Part shown: positions 8,063 through 29,540 of the stretch, one piece after another
Position numbering within the stretch: the stretch's first letter is position 1
Layout of the letters: each line of letters opens with the position of its first letter
Assembly: GCA_038870455.1 (NCBI GenBank)
Contig: JAWCPB010000011.1
Span: 1 to 29,540 of the forward strand
Direction: 5' to 3'
Length of the DNA stretch: 29,540 nt
From: Candidatus Micrarchaeia archaeon
GTDB lineage: Archaea; Micrarchaeota; Micrarchaeia; Burarchaeales; JACRGF01
Position numbers and translations under genes: made by a program
Notes under the pieces: model-generated
What the model saw: the letters and a program-made list of their open reading frames with translations, nothing else
What the model was told of the DNA's origin: nothing
Database searches by the model: none

Positions 8063-8114
8063 GCAGCACGTTGCCCCGGGGGAATTTTAATAGCTTTGCT
8101 CGAGAAGTAAGCGC

Positions 8115-8894
8115 ATGCAGGAATTGCCAAGAATCAGAAGGCTGCTGTTGCGCGCATCGCACGCCGCCGCCATCATGCTCAGGAAAAACTTTCTCCGCGT
8201 AAAGCGCGTGAGGGAAAAAGCGCCCGGCAGCATCGTTACCAACGTGGATGAGGAGATTGAGGAAAAGCTGCGCTCCCTGATTGCAAAGGCCTTTCCGGAA
8301 CACGGCATTATGGGGGAGGAGGGAACCGAGAAAGCCGGCGAAAGCGCCTGGAAATGGGTGATAGACCCCATTGATGGGACAACGAACTACGCCCGGGGGG
8401 TGCCATTCTTCAACTGCTCCATCGGGGTGGCCAGGGAGAACGAGGCGGTGCTGGGCGCGGTTGTAAACCCCATAACGGATGAGCTCTTCTTCGCCGAAAA
8501 GGGAAGAGGTGCTTTCCTGAACGGGAAAAAAATCAGCGTGTCCAGTGTGCGGCAAATCTCAAAAGCCTACATCGCATACTGCGACGGGCACTCTAAGGAA
8601 GAGAAAGCGCAGATGATTGGGCCCGCCAACCGCTTCAAGCTCGCCGCAGTTGATGCGAGGAAGTTCGGCAGCGCGGCGCTCGAGCTCTCCTACGTGGCGT
8701 GCGGAAGGTTCGATGCGCTCGTGGCATTCGCCACAAAAACATGGGATAGCGCCGCCGGAAGCCTGCTCGTACAGGAGGCTGGCGGCAGGGCAACGGGAAT
8801 CGGCGGCGAGGAATGGAACCTCGAGTCTGACGGAATCATCGCGTGCAACAGATGGATTTACGATGATGTGAGGAGAATTCTGCTGGAGGGATGA
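8115..8894 (+). CDS. suhB: Inositol monophosphatase family protein
   Basis: GEE, WVIDPIDGTTNY, GSAALEL.YVACGR.D and WD.AAG.LLV.EAGG. TTTTAATA lies 30 nt upstream. Confidence 0.94.
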   Translation: MQELPRIRRLLLRASHAAAIMLRKNFLRVKRVREKAPGSIVTNVDEEIEEKLRSLIAKAFPEHGIMGEEGTEKAGESAWKWVIDPIDGTTNYARGVPFFNCSIGVARENEAVLGAVVNPITDELFFAEKGRGAFLNGKKISVSSVRQISKAYIAYCDGHSKEEKAQMIGPANRFKLAAVDARKFGSAALELSYVACGRFDALVAFATKTWDSAAGSLLVQEAGGRATGIGGEEWNLESDGIIACNRWIYDDVRRILLEG

Positions 8895-9358: not shown

Positions 9359-9524
9359 CAACCCTTTTTCGGCGAACCGAAAAAGCGTTGACGGAAAAAA
9401 GGGAGAGCCCTTCGGGCCCCAACCCTTTTTCGGCGAACCGAAAAAGCGTTGACGGAAGACAAAGGGGGGAAGTATCCCCCCTTCGTCCTAGACCTTCCCC
9501 CCTCGTTGACGGAAAAAGGGGTTG
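9359..9524. repeat. Palindromic repeat element (REP/MITE-like) with two identical 38-nt hairpin units and one partial unit
   Basis: CAACCCTTTTTCGGCGAACCGAAAAAGCGTTGACGGAA at 9359-9396 and 9420-9457. Partial copy CGTTGACGGAAAAAGGG at 9504-9520. Additional hairpin at 9458-9487. The ends are imperfect inverted repeats. Confidence 0.85.
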
Positions 9525-11959: not shown

Positions 11960-11990
11960 CTCTGGGTTTAAAAGCATGCTTATATACCGG
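11960..11990. promoter_or_regulatory. Back-to-back TATA boxes of a divergent promoter
   Basis: GGGTTTAAAAGCATGCTTATATACC. TTATATA lies about 31 nt before GTG 12011, and TTTTAAA on the minus strand faces the helicase. Confidence 0.55.
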
Positions 11991-12010
11991 AAAGCCCCCA
12001 AACCCTTCCC

Positions 12011-13483
12011 GTGACAGCACATCAGACAAGGCGGATAGCAAGAGAGGTCAAGGTTTTTGCCGATGAGCGGAAAGGCTTTCGCGACCGGCTCCTCAGCGAA
12101 AAGGAAGCCCGCATCGAAGAGCTGCTCCAGCGCATCGGGGGAAAGACCATCCACGGGATTGACGAGAACGGGAGGCCGGCGAAGACCAAGCCACCCCACC
12201 GCCTGAAGGCGTGCATCACCTCAAGCGGCAGGGTGACGCTCGAATTCTCAAGGGAAAGCCACAGGAGGGTTGCGCGCCTGCTTCCCGAAACGATTGAAGG
12301 GCTGGCCAGGAAAGGCGGGAAATTCCCCGGAAAGAAAACAACTTTTTCAACAGACCTGCTGCATGCTGTCAGGAGCCTGAAGCACCTGAGGGAAGGACAC
12401 GCGAGCGAGATATCGGCCAAGGACAGGGTTCTCGATGAGGTCAAGAGGCTGAACCTTGAGCTCGACCAGCTTGATTCCCATGCGTCAAAAATGGAGCTTG
12501 ATGCGTTCAGGAAGAGGCTCCAGGGCTTTGTTGTAGAGCTGGAAAAAATGAAACTGCTTCTCAAACGCGCGGCCAAAAACAAGCTGGCCGAGGCCGCAGG
12601 ACTACTGGCGCAGGTTGGGGAAGAAGATAACGCGCAGGAAAAGTACCGCCTCCTAACCGCAGCGTGCTCCAAAATCGCTGCGGTCGAAAACCGCTTGGGA
12701 AGATGGCGCGACGAGGACATCATCGGCATGGACTTCTACAACCTCCTGCGCGAGCGCGCCCTGCGCCTCGCGCGTGACGCCTTTCTCTGCTTCGAGCTCA
12801 AGAGATATGCGGGAATTTTCGGAAGCCCCTGCAGCGCCAGCAGGTGGCTCGGGTTTTACAGGCACGACATGGAAGTCGTTGCGCTCATCGAGTCGATTGG
12901 AGAGGAAATCCAGCGCCCGCGGCTCTCGCTGCCAGAAGAGCAGTCTGCGAGAATCACCGCAGTGAGCAACCTCCTCCTCGCGCTCGACAGCCCGGATGCG
13001 ATGCCGCGACTCGAAGCCATCGGGAAAGCGGTCGCGGAAGAAGGCCGCGATTACATCGCGCTGCGCGAGCTCAGGCAAGCCTATAGGGCGCTGAAGAAAG
13101 GGGACGAGCTGGAGGCGGCGGCTCGCCTGGAAGAGTCCCTTCGCTTCTACTCCGACAGGCTCTCCTACCTCGCCGGGGAAATGAATAACGAGAAGTGGCT
13201 CGTGGCGCGCCACCTTTACATGGCGCGCGACCATCTCATGAGAAAAAGACGCCCGCAGAGGAGCGAAGCCCTCAATCACTTCGAGAAAGCCATTCGCTTC
13301 ATCCGCATGAACAAGCTCGATTACTTTGCTGAAGAGCTTGAGGAGACAGGGGACGCTTACACAAGCCAGGCCGTCAAGCTCATAAAACAGGCTCACGAGC
13401 ATTTCATCAGCGGCCGCTTCGCCCAGGCGCGCGAGTGCTGTCTGCAGGCAGAGGCCGAGATAAGGAAGTTCCAGCCAAAGTGA
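12011..13483 (+). CDS. Hypothetical alpha-helical/coiled-coil protein (490 aa)
   Basis: Long ORF rich in E/K/R/L/A with a TATA upstream and a TGATG overlap with the next gene. No recognised motif. Confidence 0.8.
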   Translation: MTAHQTRRIAREVKVFADERKGFRDRLLSEKEARIEELLQRIGGKTIHGIDENGRPAKTKPPHRLKACITSSGRVTLEFSRESHRRVARLLPETIEGLARKGGKFPGKKTTFSTDLLHAVRSLKHLREGHASEISAKDRVLDEVKRLNLELDQLDSHASKMELDAFRKRLQGFVVELEKMKLLLKRAAKNKLAEAAGLLAQVGEEDNAQEKYRLLTAACSKIAAVENRLGRWRDEDIIGMDFYNLLRERALRLARDAFLCFELKRYAGIFGSPCSASRWLGFYRHDMEVVALIESIGEEIQRPRLSLPEEQSARITAVSNLLLALDSPDAMPRLEAIGKAVAEEGRDYIALRELRQAYRALKKGDELEAAARLEESLRFYSDRLSYLAGEMNNEKWLVARHLYMARDHLMRKRRPQRSEALNHFEKAIRFIRMNKLDYFAEELEETGDAYTSQAVKLIKQAHEHFISGRFAQARECCLQAEAEIRKFQPK

Positions 13484-17904: not shown

Positions 17905-17958
17905 ACCGCGGGGGCGAGCAAAGCCTATTTTATATACTCTGAGAGATAAAATTCTTGT

Positions 17959-18834
17959 ATGACACAGAAAACCGCCACCGGTATGCGATCTGCGGTTCCC
18001 AAGCAGCCTTCTGCGCCATCTACGCAGCCTTTTTTCAAAGATTTTGAGAATCTTGAGAATGATAGAAAACGGTGCATTAGGCAAATCGAAGAAATTTGCT
18101 ACAAGAGATTTGCCGAAAAGCCGTTGCGCATCACCTTAATAAAGTCCCAGTTATCCGATTTTGATGCGAGAGCTGTTTTTCGCGTTGAATTCGAAAAGGC
18201 GAAAGGCCGCGTCGGCTCACCAAGCAGCTTTCTTTACTTCAAGACCTGCAGGGGCTTCAGTTTTGAAGCAGAGTTTCACGGAAGCGTTTTCATCAAAGCG
18301 CTCGGTGGGCTGGCTCCGGCAACGCTGTGGGTTGAAGATTTTTTCGTCAGCGAAGGGCTGCCGGGTGTTTCCGGCAGCAAGATTTTCGAACAAGCCGACG
18401 CCCGCCTGCTTGCGAAAGAATTCGGAAAAGCCATGGCGTACGCTTACGCCGCAGGCCTCGGGGACAGGGCGCCCGACAACTTCGTTCTGATGGAAGACAA
18501 AAACAGCAAAACCGGGTTCAAAATTGCCAACATTGATTTGACCACAGCTTTCCAACGCACCGGCTCGCTTGAGGAAGTGTTTAACATCCTGGAACTTCTT
18601 CTTGTAAGGAAAAAGAGCGAGCACGCGCTGAACAAGGAGATAGCCGCCTCTTTCATCGACTCTTTCTGCGAGGAGTTCGTAGCAATAAAAGAGACGGCTG
18701 CAGGCTTGAAGTTTGACTTCAGAGGACATGCACAGCAAAAAATCGAGCAAGCGCTGGCCCATATTGCTGCGGCCAACCCGCAAACACTCAGGAAACAGCT
18801 TTTGAATTATTTCCAGAGCATAAAACCAAAGTGA
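17959..18834 (+). CDS. Hypothetical protein with PI3/PI4-kinase-like (atypical kinase) motifs
   Basis: LYFK (beta3 Lys), EAEF (alphaC Glu), GLGDRAPDNF (catalytic loop) and ANIDL (Mg-binding Asp). TTTTATATA lies 31 nt upstream. Confidence 0.65.
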   Translation: MTQKTATGMRSAVPKQPSAPSTQPFFKDFENLENDRKRCIRQIEEICYKRFAEKPLRITLIKSQLSDFDARAVFRVEFEKAKGRVGSPSSFLYFKTCRGFSFEAEFHGSVFIKALGGLAPATLWVEDFFVSEGLPGVSGSKIFEQADARLLAKEFGKAMAYAYAAGLGDRAPDNFVLMEDKNSKTGFKIANIDLTTAFQRTGSLEEVFNILELLLVRKKSEHALNKEIAASFIDSFCEEFVAIKETAAGLKFDFRGHAQQKIEQALAHIAAANPQTLRKQLLNYFQSIKPK

Positions 18835-26329: not shown

Positions 26330-26866
26330 ATGGTCGGAGTGTCTTTCGTGAAGGAGAAGGGGCTGACCGAAACGCGCGCCAAAATCCTCACAAGAGCTTT
26401 GGAAAAAATTGATCGGGAGTACGAGGCCGAGCTGTTGCGCGCGAAAAACAAATACCTCGAGCGGTTCAGGCGTCTCGCAAGCCAGTCTCTCCCCGCAGAA
26501 ACAAAGGACAAGTACAAGAAAAATTTTCTGAAACAGTGCAAGAAAGAACTCGAACAAATTGAAACGCGGTACTTCAAAATGGCCAAGGAAGCAATTGATA
26601 AGGAATTCCCCGGCGCAGATCCGGTCAGGCTGGAGGCTGCTTTCCAGAAAGCACCGCGGGGGCTCAAGCACCTGACAAAATGGGGGAAGAAACTGTGGGG
26701 ATCGGTCAAGGAATGGTGGAAAGAACGGGCCGTCAAGAAAGAGTTTAGGGAAACAGAGTTTGACGTAGGCAGGACGGCAGAATCTACTTATGAAGAGATT
26801 CTTCACGAGCTCAGTCAGCTAAGCTGGGCAAATCTCCGGAAGACGACGCCCCAGAAGCTCGTGTGA
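26330..26866 (+). CDS. Hypothetical Lys/Glu-rich helical protein (178 aa)
   Basis: ORF fills the gap on the operon strand and has natural composition. No recognised motif. Confidence 0.7.
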   Translation: MVGVSFVKEKGLTETRAKILTRALEKIDREYEAELLRAKNKYLERFRRLASQSLPAETKDKYKKNFLKQCKKELEQIETRYFKMAKEAIDKEFPGADPVRLEAAFQKAPRGLKHLTKWGKKLWGSVKEWWKERAVKKEFRETEFDVGRTAESTYEEILHELSQLSWANLRKTTPQKLV

Positions 26867-26890: not shown

Positions 26891-26962
26891 TTTATCGCTA
26901 CAATAACCTCGCTGTTTCTCCCGCAAGCACCAACCCGCTCACGGGCTTGGGAGGGGAGGGGC

Positions 26963-27604
26963 ATGGCAATCTCAAGAGAGCAAATCAACCGTGCACTCGG
27001 CGAAGCCCTCGCGGACAAGGGCAAGCGCAAATTCACACAGAGCCTCGAGTTCATCCTCAACTTCAAGGGAGTGGATTTCGGCAAGCCCGACAAGCGCCTC
27101 AACCTGGAGGTCGCCCTTCCCAACGGCAAGGGCAAGGTCCCGAAGATAGCCGTTTTCGCGGACGGCCAGCTCGCGCTCGATGCAAAAAAAGATGGGGCGG
27201 ACCTCGTACTGGCGGGCGCGGACATTCCGAAGCTCGCGGCGGACAAGCCAAGGCTCAAGCAGCTCATGCGGGACCACGAGTTCCTAGCCGCCCCGCAGCT
27301 CATGATGCAGGTCGGAAAGTCGCTGGGCCAGGCCATGGGGCCCAAGGACAAGCTGCCTAAGCCCGTAATGGGAGGCAAGCTCGGCGAGCTCATTGAAAAA
27401 GCCAGGCGGACCGTAAAGCTGAAGACCAAAGGAAAAAACCTCCCCACAGTCCAGTGCATTGTCGGAAACGAGAATATGCCCGTGGAACAGCTCGCGGAAA
27501 ACATCGAGGCCGTCCTCGAGGCCGTGAAGGCAAAGCTCGGCGGGGAAAACATCGCCAGCGCGTTCGTCAAACTCACGATGGGAAAGCCAGCCAGAATATC
27601 CTGA
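26963..27604 (+). CDS. rpl1: 50S ribosomal protein uL1
   Basis: KRKFTQSLEFILNFK.VD, V.LPNG.GK, GP....P.P and VG.E.M..EQL.EN...KLTMG. Confidence 0.96.
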   Translation: MAISREQINRALGEALADKGKRKFTQSLEFILNFKGVDFGKPDKRLNLEVALPNGKGKVPKIAVFADGQLALDAKKDGADLVLAGADIPKLAADKPRLKQLMRDHEFLAAPQLMMQVGKSLGQAMGPKDKLPKPVMGGKLGELIEKARRTVKLKTKGKNLPTVQCIVGNENMPVEQLAENIEAVLEAVKAKLGGENIASAFVKLTMGKPARIS

Positions 27605-27614
27605 GGTGCGGCGG

Positions 27615-28475
27615 ATGAAGAAACCGGAAAAGGGGGAGAGGAGGAAGGCGAAGGAAAAGACAGTCGCTCTACTCACCCAAGAAATAAAGAAAGCAAAGAC
27701 CATCGGCATAGTGGATCTGCGCGGAGTTCCGGACCGCCAGCTGCAGTCGATGAGGAAAAAGCTGCGCGGCAAGGCAAAGTTCATAGCAGCCAAAAGCAGT
27801 CTGATCAAGCGCGCGCTCCAGGCGGCCGGCAAGGCAGTCGAGCTGTCCCAGGAAATGAAGGGGCCCACGGCCATCATCCTCGCCGACATGGATCCGTTCG
27901 CGCTCTACGGCTTCGTAAAGAAAAACAAGGGAAAGGCAGCCGCCAAGCCCGGCCAGCTCTCCCCATTCGACCTTGTCGTTCCGGCAGGCGAGACCACCCT
28001 AGCGCCGGGCCCTGTGCTGACAGAACTCAAGGCGGCCGGCATCGACGCGCGCATCGCAGGGGGCAAAGTCGTCATAGGCAAGGACAGCGTGGTCGCGAAA
28101 GCCGGAACCAAAATCTCCCCGGGCGCGGCCAAAGCGCTGCAGAAGCTCGGCATCGAGCCATTCGAGGTGGGGCTCAAGATCCCTGCAATCTGGGAAGGCA
28201 TTCTCTACCGCGAGTCGGTGCTCGACATCGATGAGAAAAAGTTCCTCGCCGAGCTCTCCACGGCCTCCTCTGCGGCGTTCAACCTGTCGGTGAAAATCTG
28301 CTACCCGACGAAAGAAAACATCAGAGTTCTCCTTGCAAAGGCCGCGCGCGAGTCGCGTTCCCTCGGCCTAAAGGCAAGGGTTTTCGCCAAAGACACAGTC
28401 CCGTTCCTGCTCGCCCAAGGCGTTGCCGAAGCTCGCGCTCTCGAGAGCAAGGCAAAACCGGAAGCGAGCCAATAA
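27615..28475 (+). CDS. rpl10: 50S ribosomal protein uL10 (acidic protein P0)
   Basis: QLQ.MRKKLRG, AAAKPG...P.D.VVPAG.T...PGP and L.KLGIEP..VGL. GAGGTG RBS. Confidence 0.95.
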   Translation: MKKPEKGERRKAKEKTVALLTQEIKKAKTIGIVDLRGVPDRQLQSMRKKLRGKAKFIAAKSSLIKRALQAAGKAVELSQEMKGPTAIILADMDPFALYGFVKKNKGKAAAKPGQLSPFDLVVPAGETTLAPGPVLTELKAAGIDARIAGGKVVIGKDSVVAKAGTKISPGAAKALQKLGIEPFEVGLKIPAIWEGILYRESVLDIDEKKFLAELSTASSAAFNLSVKICYPTKENIRVLLAKAARESRSLGLKARVFAKDTVPFLLAQGVAEARALESKAKPEASQ

Positions 28476-28496
28476 AACGATTAGGAGGTCGAAACC

Positions 28497-28793
28497 ATGG
28501 AATACATCCACGCAGCGCTGCTGCTCCATGCGGCCAAGAAGGAAATCACCGAGCAGAACGTGTTGCACGTCCTGCAGGCCGCCGGAGTGCAGGCGGATGC
28601 TGCAAAGGCAAAGGCGCTCGTCGCCTCCCTCCAGGGAGTGAACATAGACGAGGCCATAAAACAGGCGGCCCTGCCCGTTGCGGCCGCACCGGCTGCAGCG
28701 CCAGCCCAAGCAGCGCCCAAGAAGGAAGAGAAGAAAGAGGAGAAAAAAAGCGAGGAAGAGGCTGCGGCAGGCCTTGCCAGCCTGTTCGGCTAG
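28497..28793 (+). CDS. rpl12: 50S ribosomal stalk protein P1/aL12
   Basis: [11 protein letters not shown], Ala-rich hinge and [22 protein letters not shown]. Confidence 0.97.
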
Positions 28794-28835
28794 CCGACCG
28801 AAACGCTTTTATACAACCTTCTCTCCTAGCCTTCC

Positions 28836-28970
28836 GCAGGGCTTCCGCAATCCGAAGCCGTGTTTGAGCACGCTAACGAAAACAATAGGAGCGTAGGCGT
28901 GTAGGAGTGGGCACGGACAGAAAGCGCGTTGCTGTGTCTGACTGGAGCACGGCGGACAAAGCCCTGCACC
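28836..28970 (+). ncRNA. Candidate structured non-coding RNA of unknown family
   Basis: BRE-TATA (CGAAACGCTTTTATAC), with the TATA starting 29 nt upstream. A 9-bp terminal stem GCAGGGCTT/AAGCCCTGC encloses further nested helices. Confidence 0.6.
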
Positions 28971-28971
28971 T

Positions 28972-29540
28972 TCAACTTTTTCTCATGAACCTCTCAAGCC
29001 CGTCGAACGCAGCCTCGAGTTCCTCGAGCGGCGGAAGGAATACAAACCGGAAGTGAAGGTGCTCGAGCAGCGAGGAGAAGCCGCTGCCGAACACTGTGAG
29101 CACGCCCGTCTCTTCAAGAAGCTTGTAAACGAATTCCTTGTCGCTTCTCCACCTTCCATTCTCGACTTTTGGAAAAGCATAGAACGCCGCGGCCGGCTTT
29201 ACCAGCGAGATGCCCGGTATCTCGCTCGCCCTCTTGAAAGCGAAATCTCTCCGCTGCTTGAGCCTCGCCATCATGTCCTTCCTATAGCTCTCCGCCCGCG
29301 CGCGCTGCCTGTAAGTCTCGAGCACAGCCCACTGGAACGGGTGGTTCGCCGACAGCCTCATCCTGCACAGCCCAAGAATCCCGTTCTTGAGGTCCTGCGC
29401 ATCATTGTGAAAAGCGACATAACCCATGCGGAAGCCCGTGCAGGCGTATTTTTTCGACCAGCCGTTGAGCGCGATGACCGGCACGTCTTTGGAAACCTCC
29501 CACGGCATTGTGGCGCGGCCCTCGAACTCCATCCCCCTAT
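28972..29540 (-). CDS. PLP-dependent aminotransferase class I/II, 5'-truncated by the window edge
   Basis: NGWSKKYACTGFRMGY (PLP Lys), P.AAFYAFP, GVL.V.GSGF and HFRFVFLP. Confidence 0.92.
   Translation of the reverse strand, partial: RGMEFEGRATMPWEVSKDVPVIALNGWSKKYACTGFRMGYVAFHNDAQDLKNGILGLCRMRLSANHPFQWAVLETYRQRARAESYRKDMMARLKQRRDFAFKRASEIPGISLVKPAAAFYAFPKVENGRWRSDKEFVYKLLEETGVLTVFGSGFSSLLEHLHFRFVFLPPLEELEAAFDGLERFMRKS

Follow-up and report, generated by a model that had tools for sequence, protein, structure and literature searches.

A candidate structured small RNA gene at the end of the ribosomal stalk operon of a Micrarchaeia archaeon

DPANN archaea are uncultured, and their non-coding RNAs are, to our knowledge, almost entirely unexplored. 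Here we ask what lies in the 178-nt gap that separates rpl12 from a convergent aminotransferase gene in a Micrarchaeia (DPANN) contig. The stretch of DNA that was analysed as a whole, referred to below as the window, is 29.5 kb long and has a G + C content of 59%. The gap is filled by a predicted structured RNA, which the original prediction had described as a stable non-coding RNA with its own promoter, possibly representing a new family. The evidence assembled below points to a lineage-restricted small non-coding RNA gene on the plus strand, reaching from about 28836 to 28967-28981 (132-146 nt), as the probable answer.

For comparison, 80 Micrarchaeia/Micrarchaeota loci of about 12 kb per genome were recovered with a P0 profile. 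The P0 protein of the window likewise finds its closest named relatives among bins of Candidatus Micrarchaeia and Micrarchaeota. The closest relative among them is L001, with a P0 identity of 81%, which is also the only one of the 80 in which an aminotransferase gene lies next to rpl12. The comparison of the RNA itself covers the window and L001, with a third member of the clade, P0002 (P0 83% identical), left aside. The locus comprises the following features, the functions of the promoter-like motifs being putative:

26963-27604, plus strand: rpl1 (Pfam Ribosomal_L1)
27606-28475, plus strand: rplP0 (Pfam Ribosomal_L10 plus RL10P_insert)
28497-28793, plus strand: rpl12, encoding an archaeal P1-type acidic stalk protein, final gene of rpl1-rplP0-rpl12 (Pfam Ribosomal_60s, 2.8e-16)
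28799-28804, plus strand: BRE-like CGAAAC, at -37 to -32 relative to G28836, identical in L001
28807-28814, plus strand: TATA-like box TTTTATAC, which reads TTTATATA in L001
28836-28967, plus strand: structured RNA core of 132 nt, delimited by folds, pair counts and identity with L001
28968-28981, plus strand: unconserved 3' tail of 9 nt, then TTTTT at 28977-28981, the presumed termination site
28972-29538, minus strand: 3' part of a convergent class I/II aminotransferase gene (Pfam Aminotran_1_2, 5.2e-16)

The stop codon of the aminotransferase gene is at 28972-28974, and its open reading frame continues beyond the end of the window. Directly 5' of rpl1 lies a Lys/Glu-rich ORF of 178 aa (26330-26866) without a Pfam family, and no rpl11 is evident beside rpl1 within the window.

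The minimum-free-energy fold of the plus strand (28836-28970) has an energy of -56.3 kcal/mol (z = -3.05; 2 of 200 dinucleotide shuffles were equally good). All four helices of the original prediction recur in it, and together they form the architecture that had been proposed, an interrupted stalk capped by a three-way junction. The predicted fold consists of the following elements:

28836-44/28959-67, plus strand: closing helix P1, 9 bp
28845-56/28954-58, plus strand: asymmetric purine-rich internal loop between P1 and P2, with a possible 3-bp UCC/GGA helix
28857-65/28945-53, plus strand: helix P2, 9 bp
28868-28902, plus strand: hairpin A, including CACGCT/GGCGTG, with 7 bp, a bulged A, 3 bp and a 13-nt loop
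28906-28943, plus strand: hairpin B, including GGGCACGG/CTGTGTCT, with 14 pairs, two single-base bulges and an 8-nt loop (28921-28928)

The single strands of the three-way junction are GA, AGG and G. The loop of hairpin A (28879-28891) contains the Shine-Dalgarno-like motif UAGGAG, of which the predicted fold exposes two copies. The many G-U pairs that had been noticed earlier amount to 8 of 45 pairs and, since they occur on the plus strand only, the RNA was assigned to that strand; the minus strand folds with z = -1.50, a value equalled by 17 of 200 shuffles. By itself, the stability of the fold is unremarkable in a GC-rich window: when 135-nt tiles from both strands (1308 in all) were compared in a GC-regressed energy scan, 19 of them had an equal or lower GC-corrected energy. 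Beyond its stability, the RNA stands out from chance through where it lies, in a gap between convergent genes, through the promoter-like motif in front of it and through its conservation in L001.

Some details of the fold allow for variation. A reading of the sequence and a shifted fold both indicate an alternative 6-bp hairpin at the 5' end (28840-45/28854-59) that could compete with both long helices. In the internal loop, GAA (28854-56) faces GGA (28954-56), where purine-purine pairs are possible and where the flanks, judged by eye only, do not fit the canonical kink-turn of L7Ae-bound RNAs, with its tandem sheared G-A pairs beside a bulge of 3 nt. Loop-loop pseudoknots joining 28845-50 with 28921-28, also sought by eye, were rejected because they are not retained in both copies.

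Does the RNA belong to a known family? Rfam, the first check that had been proposed, gave no match at gathering score anywhere in the window. At E <= 10, a search with 601 nt yielded four sub-threshold matches (the best with 18.8 bits against a gathering score of 50) and a search with 156 nt yielded one (10.5 bits against 81); none of these was a 5S, SRP, RNase P, tRNA, LSU rRNA, ribozyme or riboswitch family. The earlier statement that signatures of 5S, SRP, RNase P and C/D box RNAs are absent is borne out by Rfam together with motif checks.

The general shape of the RNA nevertheless recalls that of a 5S rRNA (RF00001), in that it measures about 120-135 nt, pairs its ends in a 9-bp closing helix, carries a three-way junction with two arms and appears as a stand-alone gene behind a promoter-like site. 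These likenesses, the 2, 3 and 1 single-stranded bases of the junction among them, and the apparent promoter of its own are what speaks for a very divergent form of a universal RNA, be it 5S rRNA, a tRNA-like RNA, SRP RNA or RNase P RNA. We consider such an identity highly improbable. RF00001 was silent both at gathering score and at E <= 10, with 601 nt as with 156 nt, and the geometry differs, since the junction does not sit straight on helix I but above an interrupted stalk of 30 nt, with arms of 35 and 38 nt; 5S rRNA was therefore rejected. The archaeal and bacterial Rfam models of SRP RNA and RNase P RNA were likewise silent at E <= 10 and these families were rejected, as were tRNA and tmRNA, with no Rfam tRNA match at E <= 10 and no ARAGORN prediction at default stringency, introns on or off; lowering the threshold to 70% produced four calls, all implausible. 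The distribution, with 2 of 81 loci when the window is included, is also unlike that of a universal RNA, although the 79 relatives' loci that lack it cover only about 12 kb of each genome. Moreover, ordinary 5S genes are reported for Micrarchaeota genome bins in PMC8561730, and its bins LFW-35, LFW-121_3 and LFW-281_7 are our loci L022, L030 and L075.

The remaining classes were rejected on more specific grounds. The 3' end GCCCTGC-A-CC, which had been compared with a tRNA acceptor end, is present in the window, but the tRNA-like A-CC is unconserved, L001 having a deletion and a different tail. For a C/D box RNA, RTGATGA was unmatched with up to one mismatch on either strand of 28076-29267, and the only box-D-like CUGA is at 28938-28941. 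In H/ACA RNAs the lower stem is directly followed by an ACA (ANA) box, some 14-16 nt away from the pocket; in place of such a box, the closing helix is followed by ACC in the window and by CTT in L001. A riboswitch was rejected because no Rfam class matched and the sole downstream gene is on the opposite strand.

The original prediction had also found no credible ORF, and this judgement holds. The plus-strand frames carry one to three stops. Against L001, a 49-aa ORF on the minus strand shows 2 synonymous and 6 non-synonymous changes and the other open minus-strand frame 5 and 3, and a plus-strand ORF starting at 28907 has 8 non-synonymous and 0 synonymous changed codons. Both the 49-aa ORF and the ORF from 28907 are put out of frame by an indel of 1 nt at 28968. 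A small protein-coding ORF was rejected on the basis of these stops, the mostly non-synonymous change and the indel.

The copy in L001 (7187-7318) is 93.2% identical over 132 nt (blastn, nhmmer), compared with a mean identity of 82.3% over 5.2 kb of aligned window and L001 DNA; at the third codon positions of rpl12 the two sequences are 71% identical. Among distinct 132-nt windows of this alignment the RNA ranks second (70 of 4874 when overlapping windows are counted). Its 9 substitutions in 132 nt fall on 3 unpaired positions (28847, 28922 and 28923, out of 42 unpaired positions) and 6 paired ones. The conservation of the unpaired positions has a probability of P = 0.002 at the rate of the spacer and of 0.04 at the regional mean; hairpin A does not differ at all between the two copies. 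The alignment shows that the predicted stems and single-stranded parts change at a much lower rate than the spacer beside them and the adjacent genes. Because the unpaired positions are conserved and hairpin A is identical, specific bases appear to be recognised, beyond the mere presence of a stable hairpin.

The L001 copy is predicted to adopt the identical structure (-61.0 kcal/mol, z = -3.72; 0 of 200 shuffles equally good), and the consensus fold of the two copies is again the same. Standard pairing is preserved at all six stem substitutions. Four of them toggle G-U with G-C or A-U, and the pair 28913/28935 has changed on both sides, from A-U to G-C; hairpin B holds four of the six, including this double change. 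In the covariation test, the observed score was reached by 262 of 500 shuffles, statistics of this kind being powerless because there are only two sequences and these are 93% identical. Under a null model with transitions only, we estimate that all stem changes would be compatible in about 1 of 32 cases. The changes that preserve the predicted pairing are suggestive, not decisive, and conservation is a stronger signal for the candidate than covariation in this comparison.

Beyond L001 the RNA was not recovered. A covariance model (R1), built from the window and L001 copies and run over the window and the 80 loci (862,834 bases), agreed with blastn and nhmmer in finding it absent from the other 79 loci, and thus present in 2 of 81 including the window; a hit in L019 (16 bits, E = 1.6) was treated as chance. 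Searches of phage and plasmid collections gave either no match or chance matches of 25-27 nt (E = 0.6). The proposal to collect homologues downstream of rpl12 was rewarded in part, with one copy in L001 that has kept its pairing and none in the other 79 loci. The RNA is restricted to a narrow clade of Micrarchaeia of the hot-spring type. Since it is missing from 79 loci, it must be of recent origin or evolve fast, and the phylum can do without it.

Structure at the position after rpl12 recurs across Micrarchaeota without a common sequence. Clusters of near-perfect hairpins lie 3' of rpl12 in L053 (7202-7340, z = -8.5) and L065 (7166-7300, z = -5.35), and likewise just past rpl12 in L038 and L041. 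These clusters resemble the RNA in position, in high stability and in the T-rich run that follows; they differ from it in having no sequence or model similarity and no promoter evidence, and those of L053 follow a T6 run.

A different element of about 85-91 nt is conserved right 3' of rpl12 in seven genomes (about 190 nt after it in L003):

L003: 7334-7424
L004: 7152-7240
L005: 7152-7236
L006: 7151-7236
L007: 7022-7108
L008: 7139-7225
L009: 7146-7234

It forms a hairpin of 14 pairs, in which the interchange of G-U and G-C fits the minus strand, with a T run after it on that strand, and sits downstream of a conserved 41-aa minus-strand ORF without a significant Pfam family. An Rfam search at gathering score gave no match for it. 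As a homologue of the RNA it was rejected, since it has no similarity and lies on the opposite strand by its G-U pattern. L003 (7150-7260) and L004 (7250-7400) further share a conserved block (AGCTTCCTGCTTCAT...), found on opposite sides of this element.

How might the RNA be transcribed? The TATA-like box that had been placed 29 nt 5' of G28836, the first base of P1, is indeed there, and the usual archaeal promoter geometry would presumably direct initiation to 28836-28840, the opening bases of P1. TTTATA occurs twice in the 29.5-kb window, and the second copy lies 30 nt 5' of the ATG of gene 17959. The pattern AAANNYTTWTAWA, devised after the site was seen, occurs once in the window (28801-28813) against 0.05 expected. 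AAAGC-type motifs resembling CGAAAC are found 5' of the TATA-like boxes at genes 17959, 12011 and 7370. The putative promoter agrees in sequence and in spacing with the window's other promoter-like sites, in line with the earlier promoter reading. Both BRE and TATA are kept in L001, while the 42-nt spacer upstream of the RNA otherwise differs at 26% (11 positions). At the level of motifs, the locus has what an independent archaeal RNA gene would show, namely a properly spaced BRE/TATA, a purine start and an oligo-T run, all kept in L001. As a wider observation, TATA-like boxes about 30 nt 5' of start codons, often after AAAGC, occur at 17926-17961, 11979-12013 and 8083-8117, a spacing which suggests that leaderless mRNAs are common in this organism.

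Archaeal transcription ends at oligo-T runs. The run TTTTT at 28977-28981 is the first T5 3' of rpl12; it overlaps the final codons of the aminotransferase gene, and L001 has retained it. Most related loci have such a run close to rpl12, no more than 40 nt from the stop codon in 59 of 72 (median 13 nt), whereas the first T5 follows the stop after 183 nt in the window and 182 nt in L001, just past the RNA in each case. In the window, the TTTT within TTTTATAC is the sole T4 run 3' of rpl12; in L001 there is none between rpl12 and the T5 run at the 3' end of the RNA. Since rpl1-rplP0-rpl12 lacks a separate oligo-T terminator, the operon transcript probably reads into the RNA.

This last point bears on a second reading, in which the element is the 3' end of the rpl1-P0-rpl12 mRNA, possibly also of the convergent aminotransferase mRNA. 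The helices would then shield the message from 3' exonucleases, the T5 run would terminate transcription, and the resemblance to BRE/TATA would be incidental. That the rpl12-proximal T5 typical of relatives (59 of 72) is absent in the window and L001 until the end of the RNA is what one would expect of such an element, as is its place in the gap between convergent genes, and the reading is kept alive by the unrelated hairpin clusters that follow rpl12 in other Micrarchaeota (L065, L053, L038 and L041). We regard it as doubtful all the same, as a passive stabiliser requires pairing only, yet loops and junction are conserved (3 of 42 positions changed), and as the BRE and TATA are maintained inside a divergent spacer and match the other promoter-like sites of the window. 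A 3' UTR and a separate gene are compatible with each other.

The separate small RNA gene is the reading that we prefer. Under it, the BRE/TATA at -37 to -22 would start transcription at or near G28836, transcription of rpl1-rplP0-rpl12 would probably also continue into the RNA, and both kinds of transcript would end at the T5 run, 10 nt beyond the closing helix. The candidate RNA may arise from its own promoter, from read-through and processing, or from both. Of the stable non-coding RNA described at the outset, the structure, the lack of coding capacity, the plus strand and the conservation in L001 stand, and its discreteness and the use of its own promoter are to be taken conditionally. The possible new family is in keeping with the lack of an Rfam match, its basis being two sequences that are 93% identical.

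As to function, the RNA would most likely be recognised in a sequence-specific manner, as a component of an RNP or as a regulatory small RNA and not as a passive hairpin, because its loops, its junction and all of hairpin A are conserved in sequence beyond the needs of pairing; our confidence in this is low. The same applies to our first guess for the partner, a member of the translation apparatus, which was prompted by the two exposed UAGGAG motifs and the location at the end of the stalk-protein operon.

A more specific version of this guess is a decoy that mimics rRNA. The stalk, internal loop and junction would imitate the P0-P1/L11 site of 23S rRNA (helices 42-44) or the site of L1, and the RNA would bind surplus protein and thereby balance the expression of the adjacent operon. 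The RNA lies directly 3' of rpl1-rplP0-rpl12, and it shares with mimics of rRNA bound by ribosomal proteins, such as the archaeal L1 mRNA operator and the bacterial L10 leader, the linkage to the genes of L1, P0 (L10) and P1 (L12), an internal loop and a multi-helix junction. A long stalk with an internal loop, followed by a junction with two hairpins, is an arrangement that we take to resemble helices 42-44. In addition, L1 is described as binding its own mRNA as a translational repressor in Methanococcus (PMC2175363). This version is unlikely, however. In a Smith-Waterman alignment to E. coli 23S rRNA, used as the reference in place of that of the lineage itself, the best local score of the RNA was 19, below the average of 20.9 +/- 2.3 for shuffled RNAs, and 266 of 300 shuffles scored at least as high; no 23S rRNA gene was found in the 80 loci. 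Short resemblances to the GTPase centre and the L1 stalk of 23S rRNA failed this shuffle test, and mimicry at the level of sequence was rejected. The archaeal and bacterial LSU models of Rfam were silent even at E <= 10, and no Rfam leader matched. The known autoregulatory sites are 5' leaders, whereas the RNA lies 3' of the operon as an apparently separate gene with its own promoter-like site. We hold it to be quite unlikely that the RNA is a new archaeal RNP RNA for the ribosomal stalk, one that is separately promoted, copies the architecture of the rRNA stalk base and acts in trans, where it would titrate free stalk proteins or, via UAGGAG, small subunits.

The convergent gene suggests yet another function, antisense control, in which transcription of the RNA would run against the aminotransferase gene from its 3' end, and the choice between a stop at T5 and antisense read-through would hinge on whether the closing helix folds, possibly under the influence of a ligand or protein. 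The promoter-like site faces the aminotransferase gene, T5 lies in the final codons of that gene, and the alternative 5' hairpin (28840-45/28854-59) might compete with the long helices. The RNA and the aminotransferase gene also occur together in the window and in L001 and are both missing near rpl12 in the 79 other loci; given how closely the two genomes are related, this co-occurrence counts as a single event in evolution. Rfam matched no known class of riboswitch, and we know of no archaeal termination that relies on an upstream helix, so that control of this kind is distinctly improbable. When the window was scanned for duplexes that the RNA could form with targets, nothing stood out but the RNA's own antisense.

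We accordingly rank an orphan small RNA first, followed by a 3' UTR or terminator, a stalk-protein decoy, antisense control of the aminotransferase gene and a divergent universal RNA. Orphan and 3'-UTR-derived small RNAs are a general class from methanogens and haloarchaea. The RNA resembles them in its size (about 100-200 nt for the class), its location between genes at the 3' end of an operon, its possible origin from a BRE/TATA promoter or from read-through, its narrow phylogenetic range and its exposed conserved loops. It differs from base-pairing small RNAs in its unusual length and in how tightly it is paired, with 45 pairs in 132 nt. A literature search, judged by titles and the openings of abstracts, found no description of a small RNA from Micrarchaeota. 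The RNA is best filed as a candidate for a new, narrowly distributed archaeal small RNA, supported by two sequences. Lying beside the stalk-protein operon, it is a concrete candidate for the mining of metatranscriptomes and for binding tests with L1, P0-P1, L11 and L7Ae; it is useful for annotation and as the seed of a covariance model, and leaves views of any pathway unchanged.

Other parts of the window showed features of their own. The most conserved 132-nt stretch in comparison with L001 is 26912-27043 (95.5% identity against a mean of 82%), which covers the 5' leader and the first codons of rpl1. Judged by eye, CUUGGGA and UCUCAAG in this leader could pair around the ribosome-binding site and start codon, an arrangement that would presumably suit an autoregulatory L1 operator like the one of Methanococcus. 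The most stable fold of the window (residual z = -4.7 in the GC-regressed scan) is found at 9359-9521, where two perfect 38-nt direct repeats, each of them a 14-bp inverted repeat, lie 61 nt apart and are joined by a third, partial copy at 9504-9521; possible identities are a small array of repeats, a mobile palindromic element and a further RNA.
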